14,223 nt of DNA, taken from the UHGV virus genome UHGV-0099328; one strand, 5' to 3'. A program made the position numbers and the translations under genes. Source of the DNA: a virus. The notes beneath the pieces are model-generated. The model made no database searches. It was not told the origin of the DNA and saw nothing but the letters and a program-made list of their open reading frames with translations. Shown piece after piece: positions 156 through 10,476 of the stretch (its first letter is position 1; each line of letters starts with the position of its first letter).

Positions 156-231
156 TGGTGCTGTTTAACGGACTTGAACCGCTACCCATTCGCTTACAAG
201 GCGACCGCTCTACCATTGGAGCTAAAACAGC
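156..231 (-). tRNA. tRNA-Thr (anticodon UGU), phage-encoded
   Basis: Reverse complement folds as a canonical cloverleaf: acceptor GCTGTTT/AAACAGC 7/7 bp, D-stem GCTC/GAGC, anticodon loop CTTGTAA with U33 and anticodon TGT, T-stem AGCGG/CCGTT, T-loop TTCAAGT, discriminator A and encoded CCA. Anticodon stem has one mismatch. Isotype is from hand folding only. Confidence 0.6.
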
Positions 232-236
232 ATGTT

Positions 237-311
237 TGGCGGGACAGCGTGGACTCGAACCACGATAAGAAGGTTAACAGCCTTCCGTAATCACCTTTAT
301 ACGACTGACCC
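237..311 (-). tRNA. tRNA-Asn (anticodon GUU), phage-encoded
   Basis: Reverse complement gives a cloverleaf: anticodon stem GAAGG/CCTTC 5/5 bp, loop CTGTTAA (anticodon GTT), T-stem CGTGG/CCACG with T-loop TTCGAGT, 3' CCA encoded. Anticodon loop and T-arm resemble E. coli tRNA-Asn as recalled. Acceptor stem has one T-T mismatch and the D-stem is only 3 bp, so function is uncertain. Confidence 0.55.
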
Positions 312-2326: not shown

Positions 2327-2505
2327 CTTGTTTTCCTCGCACGTTCTCTAAGCCACCGGATATCCCACAGGTGAGCCGTGTAGTTGAAGGTTTTTACGTC
2401 AGATTCTTTTGGGATTGGCTTGCGTTTATTTCTGGAGCGTTTCGTTGGAAGGTATTTGCAGTTTTCGCAGATGATGTCGGTGATACTTCGTCGCTGTCGC
2501 CTCAT
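2323..2505 (-). CDS. ninE: NinE
   Basis: 60-aa basic ORF whose ATG overlaps the NinB stop (GAATGA); matches lambda NinE as recalled. Confidence 0.75.
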
Positions 2506-2912
2506 TCATACCTCCTGTCGGTAAATCTGACACCCTGACCAATAGCCCAGGCTGTTGTGTACTCGATAAGACTTGCCATACGCTTCACACTCATCTGCGC
2601 GCTGCTTTCGCGAATGTTGACGTATTCGCCTTCAAGCCCGGGCAAAACATCAGCTTCCTGCTTTGTTGCCACTGCATGACCGCTGATCAACAAAACCTTC
2701 CATTGTTCTGGTTTTAACCATTTATCGCGCCACTGAACTTGCCTAGCGATATCTGCGACCATCGCGTGAAATTTTGCGTTCTGGTCAAGGTTGCGCTTGT
2801 AGTCAGTAATGCGGATGGTGACTGGCTTGTCTTTATCGAGTGGTGTTGCGAGGATGGCATTTATTGCGGCTTGCTGTTGTTGCTTAGTTCGGAGGAAGAT
2901 TGTTTGCTTCAC
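2502..2912 (-). CDS. ninB: NinB-family recombination protein (Orf family)
   Basis: 136-aa ORF with a GTG start preceded by AAGGAG at 6-nt spacing. Conserved block [27 protein letters not shown] parallels lambda NinB (RSLDQNRKLWACLGDVSRQVEWHGRWL as recalled); diverged from lambda. Confidence 0.75.
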
Positions 2913-2923
2913 TGAATACTCCT

Positions 2924-3115
2924 TTATTTTTTATGCCTGTAACCCCATTCTTCCAGCAACCTTGCGGCGTACCACCCAAGAAACAAAGGAAAGAACATTA
3001 CAATGAGATATTCCCCGCCACGGTCAATGTTCGAAATTGACCAGATTACGATGTAACCAGTGCAGGACAGGAATATTACAAACCCCAAAAAGCTACTTCG
3101 TCGACTCATGCTCAC
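2924..3115 (-). CDS. Hypothetical small membrane protein
   Basis: 63-aa ORF with two hydrophobic segments; its start overlaps the stop of the upstream 94-aa ORF (ATGA). Same strand as the nin operon. Confidence 0.45.
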   Translation of the reverse strand: MSMSRRSSFLGFVIFLSCTGYIVIWSISNIDRGGEYLIVMFFPLFLGWYAARLLEEWGYRHKK

Positions 3116-3396
3116 TCCTTCACTTTGATTCCAGCGGCGCGGATGGATTCATCGATATCGTCACGGTCGTACACAGCAATAGCATCACTGACAAACCATA
3201 CAGGCAACTCAATTTCAATAGCTGCTCGCGATGCCTGCCACGTTTGCCAGTGGCCTTGAACATCGTCCATCACGTATTGACCACCAATATCACCACTGCC
3301 AATTTCATGGTGATTTTCAGGGTAACGGATAAGGTCTGATGATTCGCCTCCACGTCGCAACCAACTTTCTTCAAACTGCTTTCTTGATTCGTCCAT
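3112..3396 (-). CDS. Hypothetical acidic protein (nin-region accessory gene)
   Basis: 94-aa ORF, acidic and soluble-looking, on the operon strand between the replication and nin genes. No family recognised. Confidence 0.5.
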   Translation of the reverse strand: MDESRKQFEESWLRRGGESSDLIRYPENHHEIGSGDIGGQYVMDDVQGHWQTWQASRAAIEIELPVWFVSDAIAVYDRDDIDESIRAAGIKVKE

Positions 3397-3413
3397 CGAT
3401 ACTTACCCTCAGT

Positions 3414-3620
3414 TCAACTCACAAAACGCCACGCCATTTTGGCTACAGCGACAGGCATAACACCGATAATCACCCAGACAAATGCAGCGCCAAACAACGT
3501 ATACCATGGTTCTTTACCGTCATTCACAAGACGAATGTAGCTATGCAGAACAATAAAAAACGTCAGAAGAATCCATCCAACGCCAACGAATTTGAGTGCG
3601 ACGAGCATAAACTCAACCAC
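3414..3620 (-). CDS. Hypothetical small membrane protein
   Basis: 68-aa ORF with two predicted transmembrane segments, first gene after the tR2-like terminator. Confidence 0.45.
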   Translation of the reverse strand: MVEFMLVALKFVGVGWILLTFFIVLHSYIRLVNDGKEPWYTLFGAAFVWVIIGVMPVAVAKMAWRFVS

Positions 3621-3630
3621 GATTTACTCT

Positions 3631-3667
3631 CCCCCAAATAAAAAGGCCTGCGATTACCAGCAGGCCT
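3631..3667 (-). terminator. Intrinsic terminator after the helicase gene (lambda tR2 position)
   Basis: On the minus strand: AGGCCTGC-tggtaatc-GCAGGCCT (8-bp GC-rich stem) followed by TTTTTATTT. Lies between the helicase stop and the first nin-region ORF. Confidence 0.6.
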
Positions 3668-3695
3668 GTTATTAGCTCAGTGATGTAGATGGTCA

Positions 3696-5132
3696 TCAGA
3701 ATCCTCCTTTCTTCTTGGACTGCGGTTCCTCGCGTTCACGTCGGCGCATTTCAGCAGACTGTTGGTCTGTGTCATAAATAGCGCCATTTGCCTGAATGCA
3801 ATACACCGTGCCGGTATTGCCATGACGATTGAGACGAAGGATTAGTTCAGTTTCACCAGGTGGAACACTGTCATCAAAAGCGCCTTCACGATGGATCCCG
3901 ACCCAATAATCGCAATCCTGTTCAATCTGCCCTGTATCTCGTGAGTCACTTGGTAATGGGCGTTTATTGGTTCTGCTTTCCAGTGCGCGGTTAAGCTGCG
4001 TCAGAAGCACAACAACGCAATCAAGCTCTTTGGCAAGGTTCTTCAGTCCTTTGGTGATCATGCCGTAAGCAAGGTCGTTGCGATCGGCCTTCTCAGCGGT
4101 CATTAGTGTCAGGTAATCGACCAGAATCATGCCAACACATCCTTTTTCTCGCTTGATTCGACGGCTTTCGCTGACGATTTGAGCCAGAGATAATCCCGGC
4201 GTGTCGTCGATGTAAAGCAGGTCTATTTCACTCAAGCGATTGGCTGTTTCTATCGCCCTGTTGAAGTCACCATCGTAATCACCCTGATAGCCGTCATCGG
4301 CGTCATTTGTCGCCGGAAGGTAAAAAATATTCGGGTTAACACCAGACTTCTGCCCTACCAGTTTTTCCAGTATCTGATCACCTGGCATTTCAAGGCTGAA
4401 CATCAATGCGGGCTTTTTCTCATGCACTGCGCAATTGATTGCCATCTGGCTGTATAGCGTCGTTTTCCCCATCTTAGGGCGAGCGCCAATGACAAACAGA
4501 GAGCCTTTCACCAGACCTTTCGGTGACAGCATCCTGTCCAGCGATGGGATCCCTGTGCTCATTCCCCGTTGTTCGCCTGATGGGTCAAATCGCTTCTCAA
4601 GGTCGCTAACCCAGTCTTCCATGACCTCACCAAATGAGCGAAGGCCGCGACGCGATCCGGTTTTTGCATGGTCTGTCAGTTGCGTGAAAATCGCCTGAAT
4701 AGCTTCGTACTTCTGCGTTGCAGTCATTCCGTTGCGGGAATAGAGCAATTCCGTCGCTTCAGTCATGCGGTTGATGGCGTAGCGTTCCATTGCGGTTTCA
4801 CGAACCTGCATTGCATAGGCAACGATGTTTGCTGCGCTTGGCGTGTTCTTTGCGATCTCAGAGATATAAGCAAAACCGCCAACAGACGCCGTTAACGATT
4901 TGCGCTCCAGTTCATCGAAAAGCGTCAGGCCATCTACTGGCTTTTGCTCCCGGTGCATTCTGGTTATTTCTTCGAAAAGGATTTTGTGTGGTCGGCTGTA
5001 AAATGAATCAGGCTTCAGCATCGCCAGAACTTTCTGGACGCGCTCACTGCTGTCATCATCCAGAAGCAATCCACCAATCACCGCCTGCTCTGCCTCGATG
5101 CTATGGGGCGGCGCATAAAAATTATCGGTCAT
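3696..5132 (-). CDS. Replicative DNA helicase, DnaB family (P22 gp12-like)
   Basis: Walker A GARPKMGKTT and DnaB-like architecture. ORF track starts at 5147 (GTG), but ATG at 5132 with upstream GAGGG is preferred, giving an 11-nt overlap with the initiator gene. Confidence 0.9.
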   Translation of the reverse strand: MTDNFYAPPHSIEAEQAVIGGLLLDDDSSERVQKVLAMLKPDSFYSRPHKILFEEITRMHREQKPVDGLTLFDELERKSLTASVGGFAYISEIAKNTPSAANIVAYAMQVRETAMERYAINRMTEATELLYSRNGMTATQKYEAIQAIFTQLTDHAKTGSRRGLRSFGEVMEDWVSDLEKRFDPSGEQRGMSTGIPSLDRMLSPKGLVKGSLFVIGARPKMGKTTLYSQMAINCAVHEKKPALMFSLEMPGDQILEKLVGQKSGVNPNIFYLPATNDADDGYQGDYDGDFNRAIETANRLSEIDLLYIDDTPGLSLAQIVSESRRIKREKGCVGMILVDYLTLMTAEKADRNDLAYGMITKGLKNLAKELDCVVVLLTQLNRALESRTNKRPLPSDSRDTGQIEQDCDYWVGIHREGAFDDSVPPGETELILRLNRHGNTGTVYCIQANGAIYDTDQQSAEMRRREREEPQSKKKGGF

Positions 5133-6012
5133 CGTGTTCACCCTCACGAACTTTCAGGTAGGTATTATCGTTAAGCAGGAAATCAAATCCCTTTTTGTGC
5201 CAGACGGTTCCGCGTTGATGGTTTGGGCGTTCTTCGAACATCCATCGGCAATTTTCGCCTACGTAGCTCAAATAATTTCTCCAGTCCTGCATCGTGAACC
5301 CATGCCCGTCAAGCTGGCGGGTTATCACTCCGGCTTTGCGCCAGAACGTTCGGATCTGGTTTTTACGCTTGTCATTCAGTGCGCGGATTCTTGGCGCTTC
5401 AGGAAGGATTTCGTGGTAAGCATCGACAACATCCTGACAGCTGACGGAAGGTTTTTTCTTGTCAGACTTTTTATCTGCTGTGGCACTCTCTAATACGTCA
5501 GTATTAGAGATATTATTTATATTATTGTTTATGGACAACCGTTGGACAACCGTTGGACAATCTCCGCTGAGAGCCACGCCATTACTGGTGTTTGCGTTGG
5601 ACAACCGTTGGACAACCGTTGGACAATTTTTTGCCTGAAAATCGTCATATTTAACGATTGTAAACAGGCTAAATTTCTTCCCCATCGAGCAAATATTAAG
5701 CATCCCTTTCGACTCAAAAGTCCGTAATAAGCTCCGAACTTTGTTGTCGGGGATGAATGTTTCTCTGACCAGCGACGGGCGTCCAGTTATCATCTGACCG
5801 CGATCAACAGTTATCGGACCGATATCCGTATTGACGACAGTAGATTCGTGATTAGCCTTGAGGATTAAGTGAAGCCAAAGATGTACTGCCTGAGAGTCCT
5901 TATAGAGCCTGCTGTCCATAAACTGGCGGTGTATAGAGACATACCCCATACTGGATGCCTCCTGATGTTGTACAGGGTTATGCCTGTAATCAGCTAACTT
6001 AACGACGCCCAT
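5122..6012 (-). CDS. Replication initiator protein (lambda O / P22 gp18 analogue) containing the origin
   Basis: 296-aa ORF directly upstream of the helicase, with AGGAG 7 nt before the ATG. Origin iterons lie inside the coding sequence (repeated peptide CPTVVQRLS), as in lambda O. Confidence 0.8.
   Translation of the reverse strand: MGVVKLADYRHNPVQHQEASSMGYVSIHRQFMDSRLYKDSQAVHLWLHLILKANHESTVVNTDIGPITVDRGQMITGRPSLVRETFIPDNKVRSLLRTFESKGMLNICSMGKKFSLFTIVKYDDFQAKNCPTVVQRLSNANTSNGVALSGDCPTVVQRLSINNNINNISNTDVLESATADKKSDKKKPSVSCQDVVDAYHEILPEAPRIRALNDKRKNQIRTFWRKAGVITRQLDGHGFTMQDWRNYLSYVGENCRWMFEERPNHQRGTVWHKKGFDFLLNDNTYLKVREGEHDDR
5529..5630. repeat. Replication origin iterons: two clusters of about three 11-bp direct repeats (GGACAACCGTT) flanked by an AT-rich tract
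   Basis: Seen directly: atGGACAACCGTTGGACAACCGTTGGACAAtc at 5531-5562 and GTTGGACAACCGTTGGACAACCGTTGGACAAtt at 5596-5628, separated by about 35 bp, with an AT-rich stretch at 5495-5530. Classic lambdoid ori architecture. Confidence 0.75.
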
Positions 6013-6160
6013 GTTTCACTCCTGCTTTGGCTAGTCTGTAAACACCAACAAGGCGCTCTGCGAACGCCCTGTTATTTGCTGCGGCTACCACTAATCCCTC
6101 AGGTGAATCAGGGTGTCGAATCTCTTCTTTTTCCTGGTATTTCTTACGACGTTTTGTCAT
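5999..6160 (-). CDS. Hypothetical small basic protein between cII and the initiator
   Basis: Not in the ORF track (53 aa). ATG at 6160 preceded by AGGAG; translation MTKRRKKYQEKEEIRHPDSPEGLVVAAANNRAFAERLVGVYRLAKAGVKHGRR. Its stop overlaps the initiator start. Confidence 0.3.
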   Translation of the reverse strand: MTKRRKKYQEKEEIRHPDSPEGLVVAAANNRAFAERLVGVYRLAKAGVKHGRR

Positions 6161-6808: not shown

Positions 6809-7606
<798 letters not shown>

Positions 7607-7692: not shown

Positions 7693-8598
7693 ATGTCGAT
7701 TAACAGCAATAGCGAATCCCTGCATCAAATGCAGCTTTTCCCTGTAGTAGAGGTTGTTTCTGATGATATTCCTATGGGCGTTCTCAATGATGGAACTCCT
7801 TACCTAACTCTCTACGGTCTCGCAAAGTTATGCGGCATTGATGACACGCCACTGAGGGTGTTCACATCAAACTGGAACACAGAGAAAAACAAACCCAGAG
7901 GTCAAAAAGTAGCTGCGTATTTAGCTGAGAAAGGGTTTCATAACGTCGAAAAGCTATACACTCGCGTTTTAAATAGCTCAAACGTGGAAACTCATGCTTA
8001 TCCTGACTATGTTTGCATGGCTATCCTCCGTTACTACGCTCTAGATGCCACCAATTTTGATAGGTCAGTCGCAATAGGTAATTTTGTTCGCTTGGCTGAG
8101 TACACGCTTAAGCGAATGATTTATGAAAAGTCAAATTACAACCCAAATGCTTCAATAGATATCTCATTCGAGAACTATAGAGCAAGGATTAAGCTAAACG
8201 ATCAGATACCGACAACTCATTTTGCAGTATTCAGAGAGATAGCTGACATTGCCATGAACCTGATCGGAGGAGGATTCCCAATGGATGACACCACATCTTT
8301 GGATGGAAGTGTTGGAATTCACTGGGGAAAGTATTGGACAGCTAATGGGCTATCTGAGAAATTCGGGGAAAGGGTGCAGTACCCACATTTATTCCCCGAA
8401 AATTACAGGCAGTCAGCTGCAAATAAGCATATAACAGCTTGGATTTATCCTATTGAGGCACTTGGCGTGTTCAGAAAATGGCTACACGATAATTACGCAA
8501 TGGAAAAACTGCCAAATTACCTTGGGAACAAAAAGATTAGTAACGCCTCCGAGCTATTAGAGTCGATAAAAAAACCAGCACTCCCAAATAAGCATTGA
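7693..8598 (+). CDS. Hypothetical protein in the rexA-rexB position; candidate prophage defence / superinfection-exclusion factor
   Basis: 301-aa ORF immediately downstream of and co-oriented with cI, followed by an intrinsic terminator and then oL/pL. It is unrelated to RexA or RexB and looks AT-rich compared with cI. The N-terminal segment PMGVLNDGTPYLTLYGLAKLCGIDDTP loosely resembles KilA-N/Bro-N DNA-binding domains (from memory). Confidence 0.7.
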   Translation: MSINSNSESLHQMQLFPVVEVVSDDIPMGVLNDGTPYLTLYGLAKLCGIDDTPLRVFTSNWNTEKNKPRGQKVAAYLAEKGFHNVEKLYTRVLNSSNVETHAYPDYVCMAILRYYALDATNFDRSVAIGNFVRLAEYTLKRMIYEKSNYNPNASIDISFENYRARIKLNDQIPTTHFAVFREIADIAMNLIGGGFPMDDTTSLDGSVGIHWGKYWTANGLSEKFGERVQYPHLFPENYRQSAANKHITAWIYPIEALGVFRKWLHDNYAMEKLPNYLGNKKISNASELLESIKKPALPNKH

Positions 8599-9117: not shown

Positions 9118-9450
9118 ATGGATGCACAAACACGCCGCCGCGAACGTCGCGCAGAGAAACAGGCTCAATGGAAAGCAGCAAATCCCCTGTTAGTTGGGGT
9201 AAGCGCAAAACCAGTTAACCGCCCTATTCTCTCGCTGAATCGAAAACCGAAATCACGAGTAGAAAGCGCACTGAATCCGATAGACCTTACGGTGCTGGCT
9301 GAATACCACGAACAGATTGAAAGCAACCTGCAGCGTATTGAGCGCAAGAATCAGCGCACATGGTACAGCAAGCCACGCAGTGAAATAGGTGTGACTTGCT
9401 CAGGCCGCCAGAAGCAACGCGGAAAATCAATTCCAGCTTATTACGATTGA
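9118..9450 (+). CDS. N: Antitermination protein N (lambda type, variant C-terminus)
   Basis: 110-aa ORF starting MDAQTRRRERRAEKQAQWKAANPLLVG (arginine-rich boxB-binding motif), preceded by AGGAGA. The last 25 or so residues diverge from lambda N as recalled. Confidence 0.9.
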   Translation: MDAQTRRRERRAEKQAQWKAANPLLVGVSAKPVNRPILSLNRKPKSRVESALNPIDLTVLAEYHEQIESNLQRIERKNQRTWYSKPRSEIGVTCSGRQKQRGKSIPAYYD

Positions 9451-10250: not shown

Positions 10251-10311
10251 TATGCATACCAATAACGCTTCACTCGAGGCGTTTTCGTTATGTATAAATA
10301 AGGAGCACACC

Positions 10312-10476
10312 ATGCAATATGCCATTGCAGGGTGGCCTGTTGCTGGCTGCCCTTCCGAATCTTTACTTGAACGAATCACCCGTAAATTACGTGACGGATG
10401 GAAACGCCTTATCGACATACTTAATCAGCCAGGAGTCCCAAAAAATGGATCAAACACTTATGGCTATCCAGACTAA
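10312..10476 (+). CDS. cIII: CIII (FtsH/HflB inhibitor)
   Basis: 54-aa product [54 protein letters not shown] starting at the internal ATG, preceded by AGGAG; matches lambda CIII as recalled. The ORF track's upstream extension is rejected. Confidence 0.85.
   Translation: MQYAIAGWPVAGCPSESLLERITRKLRDGWKRLIDILNQPGVPKNGSNTYGYPD

Follow-up and report, generated by a model that had tools for sequence, protein, structure and literature searches.

The window analysed here, a 14,223-nt stretch of the virus genome UHGV-0099328, belongs to a lambdoid prophage, of which it spans the immunity and early region. cI and N lie on the plus strand, and the rightward pR operon occupies the minus strand in the order cro, cII, O, DnaB-type helicase, tR2, three small ORFs termed A, B, and C, ninB-ninG, metallophosphatase, and Q. 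The three ORFs are consecutive and same-stranded (minus strand, 3414-3620, 3112-3396, and 2924-3115), as the first-pass annotation had described them. The replication module contains neither a lambda-type P nor ren, and the nin block is composed of NinB, NinE, NinF, NinG, the metallophosphatase, and Q, in agreement with the earlier reading that ninC, ninD, and ninH are absent. The principal features are:

6893-7606, plus strand: cI, leftward gene
9118-9450, plus strand: N (Pfam N36)
6792-6592, minus strand: cro, first gene of the rightward pR operon
Minus strand: cII (Pfam Phage_CII)
6012-5122, minus strand: O-like initiator gene
3696-5147, minus strand: DnaB-type replicative helicase gene, upstream flank (Pfam DnaB, E = 7e-31; DnaB_C, E = 3e-60; phrog_19)
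3696-3613, minus strand: 27-aa hydrophobic ORF (MTIYITELITGLLVIAGLFIWGRVNRG), overlapping the helicase stop and crossing the tR2 hairpin into the start of ORF A
3667-3644, minus strand: tR2-like intrinsic terminator, 8-bp stem with six G-C pairs and a T-run (terminator scan)
3627-3635, minus strand: Shine-Dalgarno site of ORF A, GGGGGAGAG, 6 nt ahead of the GTG start
3620-3414, minus strand: ORF A, 68 aa, GTG start, predicted two-helix membrane hairpin, phrog_1165 (profile match, hydropathy, AlphaFold)
3406-3410, minus strand: Shine-Dalgarno site of ORF B, GAGGG, 9 nt ahead of the ATG
3396-3112, minus strand: ORF B, 94 aa, acidic, soluble, phrog_343 / PF26207, PGAP 'phiTE_015 family'
3120-3115, minus strand: Shine-Dalgarno site of ORF C, AAGGAG, within the last codons of B, 5 nt ahead of the ATG
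3109-2924, minus strand: ORF C, two hydrophobic segments, 61 aa when read from the ATG (hydropathy, homologs)
2502-2912, minus strand: ninB, downstream flank (Pfam NinB, E = 4.6e-53)

Several further elements were recorded in the window. A 301-aa ORF just downstream of cI and on the same strand (7693-8598, plus strand) has no Pfam match and encodes a strong homolog of BstA (PADLOC PDLC02356, E = 1.3e-105), a prophage abortive-infection defence protein; lambda carries rexAB at this position. Genes for tRNA-Thr(TGT) and tRNA-Asn(GTT) are located immediately downstream of Q (156-311, minus strand), and a lambda cIII thermoregulator RNA element is present at 10299-10357 on the plus strand (Rfam RF01804, 88.5 bits). 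Between cII and the O-like gene lies a 53-aa ORF without a Pfam match (5999-6160, minus strand), at the position where the small ORF hkaW is annotated in HK620.

The tR2-like hairpin, with a folding energy of -17.9 kcal/mol (RNA fold), has a T-run that leads directly into the Shine-Dalgarno site of ORF A, and the equivalent sequence in HK620 and Sf6 is annotated as tR2, which bears out the proposal of a tR2-like terminator ahead of the trio. At the other end, ninB starts 11 nt past the ORF C stop with an AGGAG site in front. A consensus scan of 2400-4000, from which weak or unusual promoters may escape, detected no sigma-70-like promoter site, and an Rfam scan found no RNA family in the trio region, so an RNA explanation for this region was dropped. 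With the genes positioned behind tR2 and no promoter-like site, expression would therefore probably occur only upon read-through of tR2 by N-modified polymerase. A, B, and C would accordingly be made during infection or induction and not in the lysogen, a timing deduced from the consensus scan.

The first-pass annotation had placed the trio where lambda has ren. In lambda, ren is a dispensable member of the pR operon, located where the replication genes give way to the nin genes (PMC8022706), and the trio resembles it in dispensability and in this border position. The placement is nevertheless imprecise, as the slot occupied by A, B, and C is downstream of tR2, whereas phage H-19B has the order P, ren, tR2, A, B-like gene, ninB, with ren upstream of the terminator and coexisting with A. 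That the ORFs functionally replace lambda ren, protecting against Rex exclusion, is suggested by the missing ren of the window and by their location between the replication and nin genes, and it is hardly credible: the simultaneous presence of ren and A in H-19B largely refutes it, mEpX1 also carries a Ren-like gene adjoining the same region, and A, B, and C match no Ren-named family in PHROGs or Pfam.

A second name attached to this neighbourhood is NinA, and some records label ORF A or its neighbour ninA. The 27-aa hydrophobic ORF of the window is the counterpart of the ORF that annotations of P22-like phages (HK620, SPN9CC, and Sf6) call 'NinA'; whether it is a real gene is doubtful. ORF A is distinct from it in reading frame and product, and its identification as P22-type NinA was rejected.

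ORF A aligns over its full length with phrog_1165 (residues 1-68 covering all 68 profile positions, E = 9.8e-38), a family listed as 'unknown function'. Two hydrophobic stretches reach KD19 values of up to 2.4, and the AlphaFold model (pLDDT 91.3) comprises helices 2-33 and 38-67, giving two membrane-length helices joined by a short loop. The model thus describes ORF A as a predicted two-pass inner-membrane hairpin, in line with the 68-aa two-TM protein proposed at first reading. The arrangement GGGGGAGAG-N6-GTG precedes A in 157 related loci, with a one-base variant in 24 others. Homologs form 61 clusters; all 33 aligned full-length homologs are 68 aa long and free of indels, and dN/dS is 0.26-0.40 against alleles at 63% nucleotide identity, the variation between alleles being confined to the N-terminal two-thirds.

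ORF A is present in 107 phage records, all of them Escherichia or Salmonella lambdoid phages and many Stx-converting. An unnamed 68-aa phrog_1165 ORF is located between tR2 and ninB in HK620, H-19B, mEp213, SPN9CC, and Stx2a-converting phages. The copies in HK620, H-19B, mEp213, and HZ41 are 92-96% identical to ORF A of the window and share with it the GTG start and a Shine-Dalgarno site straight after the tR2 T-run. The neighbours differ: in HK620, A stands alone directly ahead of ninB, unlike in the window, and in H-19B it follows ren and tR2. The A-type ORF was left unannotated in the original HK620 and H-19B records. Opposite the trio, two 100-aa antisense ORFs are found, one facing B and C (3037-3339, plus strand) and one facing A (3339-3641, plus strand). 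In 73 of 76 A alleles, the frame antisense to A stays open over 67-69 codons, probably as a codon-usage effect of a hydrophobic gene.

ORF B, with a pI of 4.58, 20 D+E against 10 K+R, and no hydrophobic segment, conforms to the 94-aa acidic soluble protein anticipated for the middle ORF; without a signal peptide, it would stay in the cytoplasm. It matches phrog_343, again listed as 'unknown function', on profile positions 36-125 of 135 (E = 1.2e-27). The assignment to PF26207 rests on domains precomputed for ORF B homologs, one copy of which PGAP names 'phiTE_015 family protein'. The family is very large, the B profile retrieving 1793 representative clusters (50% identity level) at E <= 0.001, a number that falls to 236 at E <= 1e-10, and ORF B occurs in 67 phage records, Klebsiella, Enterobacter, and Pseudomonas phages among them. 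The Sf6 gene 48 protein, an unnamed HK022 ORF (33319-33633), and a Gally ORF labelled by its annotators 'similar to P22 EaD' belong to the same phrog_343 / PF26207 family, and the lambdoid members share with ORF B the position just upstream of ninB.

Alignment divides ORF B into three conserved islands (residues 1-9, ~50-65, and ~86-94) separated by two variable cassettes, V1 (~10-49) and V2 (~66-85). The islands common to ORF B and its family read MDESRKQFE, W..WQASRAAIEIELP, and IRAAGIKVKE, and the window copy carries the residues of the invariant or near-invariant alignment columns (F8, W50, W53, S56, R57, P65, G89, and K93) together with the commonest V1 cassette and a short V2 cassette. 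The AlphaFold model of B has a pLDDT of 67. In Skate (L240, 1087-1464) and Bas77 (L242, 1087-1434), the B domain is fused to an additional N-terminal segment of ~35 aa (MRWAIKHKSGRTLF...) that window B lacks, which accounts for the 135-position PHROG profile and for database entries of 125-138 aa. In VLCpiS13d (L241, 700-978), the ~35-aa segment heads a separate protein instead of a B fusion. With the B profile as query, no PDB sequence matched at E <= 10, a family-model scan of 74 distant B relatives gave no match, and literature searches (phiTE_015, PF26207, L0091 together with 933W, and small membrane proteins of the nin region) found no paper.

The B stop TGA occupies 3114-3112 and the C start ATG lies at 3109, 2 nt past the stop, so that the junction reads TGAGCATG. 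The earlier description of an ATGA overlap between the two genes is wrong; use of an alternative GTG at 3115 would form a GTGA overlap with the B stop and give a 63-aa C. ATG 3109 is the start kept in relatives and picked by gene callers: all four C database clusters begin at its equivalent, with lengths of 56-61 aa, and a divergent C homolog retains the ATG and not the GTG register. Hydropathy peaks of 2.1 and 1.7 (KD19) define two hydrophobic stretches, by which ORF C is a predicted two-pass hairpin. Of the 63-aa two-TM protein described initially, the two hydrophobic stretches are retained and the length is not, as the conserved start gives 61 aa.

AAGGAG precedes C in 97 of the 103 B-C junctions listed and AAGGGG in the remaining six, with B-C spacing identical in 95 loci and C-ninB spacing in 85. 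The 2-nt gap and a Shine-Dalgarno site within B make tight translational coupling of B and C plausible. A and C are probably inner-membrane hairpins whose two ends both face the cytoplasm, because basic residues flank the ends and the A loop is only ~4 residues long.

ORF C is far more restricted than its neighbours. It has no match in PHROGs, forms four protein clusters among 5.8 billion proteins, and occurs in four of 50,697 phage records; among 5426 complete E. coli genomes, 195 carry it at >=95% identity. No annotated feature covers it in any of the 10 RefSeq genomes sampled across the ranking. The only divergent homolog found (P0124, in locus L229) stands alone, 20 nt past a helicase gene, and is 72% identical in amino acids and 75% in nucleotides, with 61 codons, the ATG, and the Shine-Dalgarno site kept. 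Comparison of the two gives a dN/dS of 0.19, and third codon positions account for 22 of the 47 differences.

These data bear on the proposal that at least one of the ORFs is not a gene but an open frame in linker DNA, C being the main candidate. Its lack of annotation fits this proposal, as do the open antisense frames over A and the >=95% identity of C wherever it occurs in E. coli, although the latter is by itself uninformative on selection. The divergent C homolog, with its intact frame and low dN/dS, argues against it; so do the constant 68 codons of A, free of indels at a dN/dS of ~0.3, and the 1793 clusters of the B family, leaving the proposal very improbable. Conserved Shine-Dalgarno sites, fixed lengths, dN/dS, and the large B family together indicate that A, B, and C are all coding. 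The Shine-Dalgarno sites and their spacings are kept across more than 100 related loci, and the refuting condition set at first reading, a lack of conservation and ribosome-binding sites in relatives, does not apply. ORF C looks like a systematically missed small gene.

Comparison of related loci reveals a mosaic in which pairwise identity jumps abruptly between ~100% and ~45%, with switch points within A and B. Conservation extends over the helicase end, tR2, and the beginning of A. Two allele types exist for the first two-thirds of A, whose last third then makes up a single conserved block with the 17-nt A-B spacer and the initial two-thirds of B; a variable segment of B near its C-terminus follows; and the end of B, the whole of C, and ninB are again conserved. 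In phage Gally, similarity is left only in the three B islands. The 332 parsed B genes include no fewer than 22 types of V1 and 28 of V2, in at least 54 combinations, and the V1 type of the window combines with 20 different V2 types. The alignments thus indicate that recombination breakpoints lie inside A and B and that B cassettes reassort freely. Across 80 unique A-B haplotypes, both A alleles occur with all major V1 and V2 types, and therefore there is no allele-specific co-adaptation of A and B. That short conserved 'boundary sequences' serve as recombination points is an accepted concept for lambdoid mosaicism (PMC3029335), and the same idea appears in the Sf6 record.

A rival reading is that of an A-B module with C optional. 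In such a module, the membrane hairpin would recruit or be regulated by soluble B through the A C-terminus and the B N-terminus, for exclusion or envelope modification in lytic growth. The 17-nt spacer, identical in 154 loci, and inheritance of the stretch from the last third of A across the spacer to the B start as one ~100% block are consistent with this organisation, as is the position of C, always 2 nt past a B gene. The conserved block is equally explicable as a recombination linker, and V1 and V2 types occur in free combination with the variable part of A.

The 821-bp region gives partial matches in 2021 of 5426 complete E. coli genomes and reaches >=80% coverage in only 88; among phage records, 416 match partially and two at >=80% coverage. 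Loci were then considered from IMG/VR anchored on A, B, and C separately; these derive from related prophages and are not independent observations. B is missing from 11 of 80 A-anchored loci, in which A directly precedes ninB as in HK620, and A is missing from 13 of 80 B-anchored loci. Of 62 C-anchored loci, 61 also contain a B gene. The expectation that the trio is conserved as a unit thus fails (88 of 2021 matching genomes at >=80% coverage, with A, B, and the C homolog each found separately), and with A alone, B alone, and a C homolog alone, the genes do not constitute an obligate multi-gene module. The one exception to this independence is C, which in the E. coli phages sampled did not occur without B.

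An unbiased sample anchored on ninB comprises 74 usable slots, of which 62 contain B, 38 A, and 17 C, and eight contain none of A, B, C, or D, where D stands for a 60-aa product that has two hydrophobic segments and no relationship to A or C. The association of A with B in these slots is not significant (odds ratio 2.4, p = 0.22); that of C with B, 17 slots to 0, gives p = 0.057. When any membrane-protein gene is counted (A, D, or Sf6 gp46), it is present in 48 of 62 B-positive versus four of 12 B-negative slots (p = 0.0045), a value that depends entirely on the eight slots without any such gene, the remaining slots having no association. In the fetched loci, a small ORF with two hydrophobic segments, from the unrelated families A and D, is positioned immediately upstream of 192 of 234 B genes, in a sample partly anchored on A and C.

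Outside the lambdoid phages, B relatives are located among early genes, such as those for Lar-like proteins. Those of Skate, Bas77, VLCpiS13d, and PA5oct have no adjoining membrane protein; the FBPa19 relative is flanked by ORFs without a two-segment hairpin, one downstream ORF having a single hydrophobic segment. Together with the HK620 copy of A that stands without B, these relatives weigh against the A-B module. It is kept alive because of the fixed A-B spacing, the dependence of C on B, and the recurrence of three unrelated membrane families (A, D, and Sf6 gp46) upstream of B genes, all of which run counter to the view of separate genes. We regard the module as possible, and rather unlikely.

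The same interval accommodates further arrangements. In L016 (3569-4150; also in L111, L184, L031, L110, and others), D and a second B gene with different cassettes follow C, giving the order A, B, C, D, second B, ninB. The Sf6 slot holds gp46, with one hydrophobic segment, gp47, and the B relative gp48. No mutual similarity is detected among A, C, and D, and their derivation as paralogs was ruled out. The tR2-ninB interval is thus a cassette hot-spot, with B-family genes as its commonest occupant. The presence/absence polymorphism between near-identical phages, HK620 with A only, and the eight of 74 slots empty of A, B, C, and D support the initial suggestion of accessory rather than core nin functions.

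Family, structure, and defence-system searches yielded no functional assignment for the three ORFs. Scans against Pfam, NCBIfam, and PADLOC returned sub-threshold noise only (T4SS_pilin, SET_TTL, and Acyl_transf_3), PADLOC giving no match for any of the three at E <= 0.1, and all source names for the A, B, and C families are 'hypothetical protein'. A small hairpin membrane protein beside a small acidic protein resembles some toxin-antidote pairs, and the window carries a defence gene elsewhere, the BstA homolog at 7693-8598. A module of toxin-like, toxin-antitoxin, or abortive-infection type, in which a small membrane protein would be the toxin and its soluble partner the antidote, is very unlikely all the same, given that A, B, and C have no PADLOC match, that the putative partners are found separately and without allele-specific pairing, and that the genes, for which no promoter of their own was detected, lie behind a terminator in a lytic operon.

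HK97 gp15, T4 Imm, and P22 SieA are short inner-membrane proteins from dispensable phage genes that block superinfection. The likeness of A and C to them is one of function by analogy only, as no sequence or fold similarity was found. Expression of HK97 gp15 and P22 SieA takes place from the prophage; A and C, in contrast, are situated behind tR2, and no promoter was detected for them. A role of A and C as holins was rejected, their genes being upstream of Q in the early operon and not in the lysis cassette downstream of Q.

Taken together, A, B, and C are probably three separate, dispensable accessory genes in the tR2-ninB recombination hot-spot of the lambdoid rightward early operon. They are previously sequenced, uncharacterised mosaic genes of an ordinary kind, from families already catalogued as 'hypothetical'. 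As separate accessory genes, each would most likely provide an independent lytic-phase function in interaction with the host or competing phages: V1 and V2 may allow B to bind a variable partner, and A and C may act on the envelope. A more specific proposal is that B is a combinatorial specificity protein, its three-island scaffold displaying two exchangeable cassettes that recognise variable host-defence or rival-phage targets, in lambdoids perhaps at the membrane with the preceding A, D, or Sf6 gp46, and with C as a young, overlooked add-on; we offer it as speculative and distinctly improbable in this full form.

The reading of a ren-replacing three-gene exclusion module is thereby removed, and the ORFs take their place as ordinary mosaic accessory genes of the tR2-ninB hot-spot. 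ORF C emerges as a conserved, selected small membrane-protein gene mostly omitted by RefSeq annotation. ORF B, a member of a very large phage family with shuffled cassettes, is a reasonable candidate for counter-defence and host-takeover screens.
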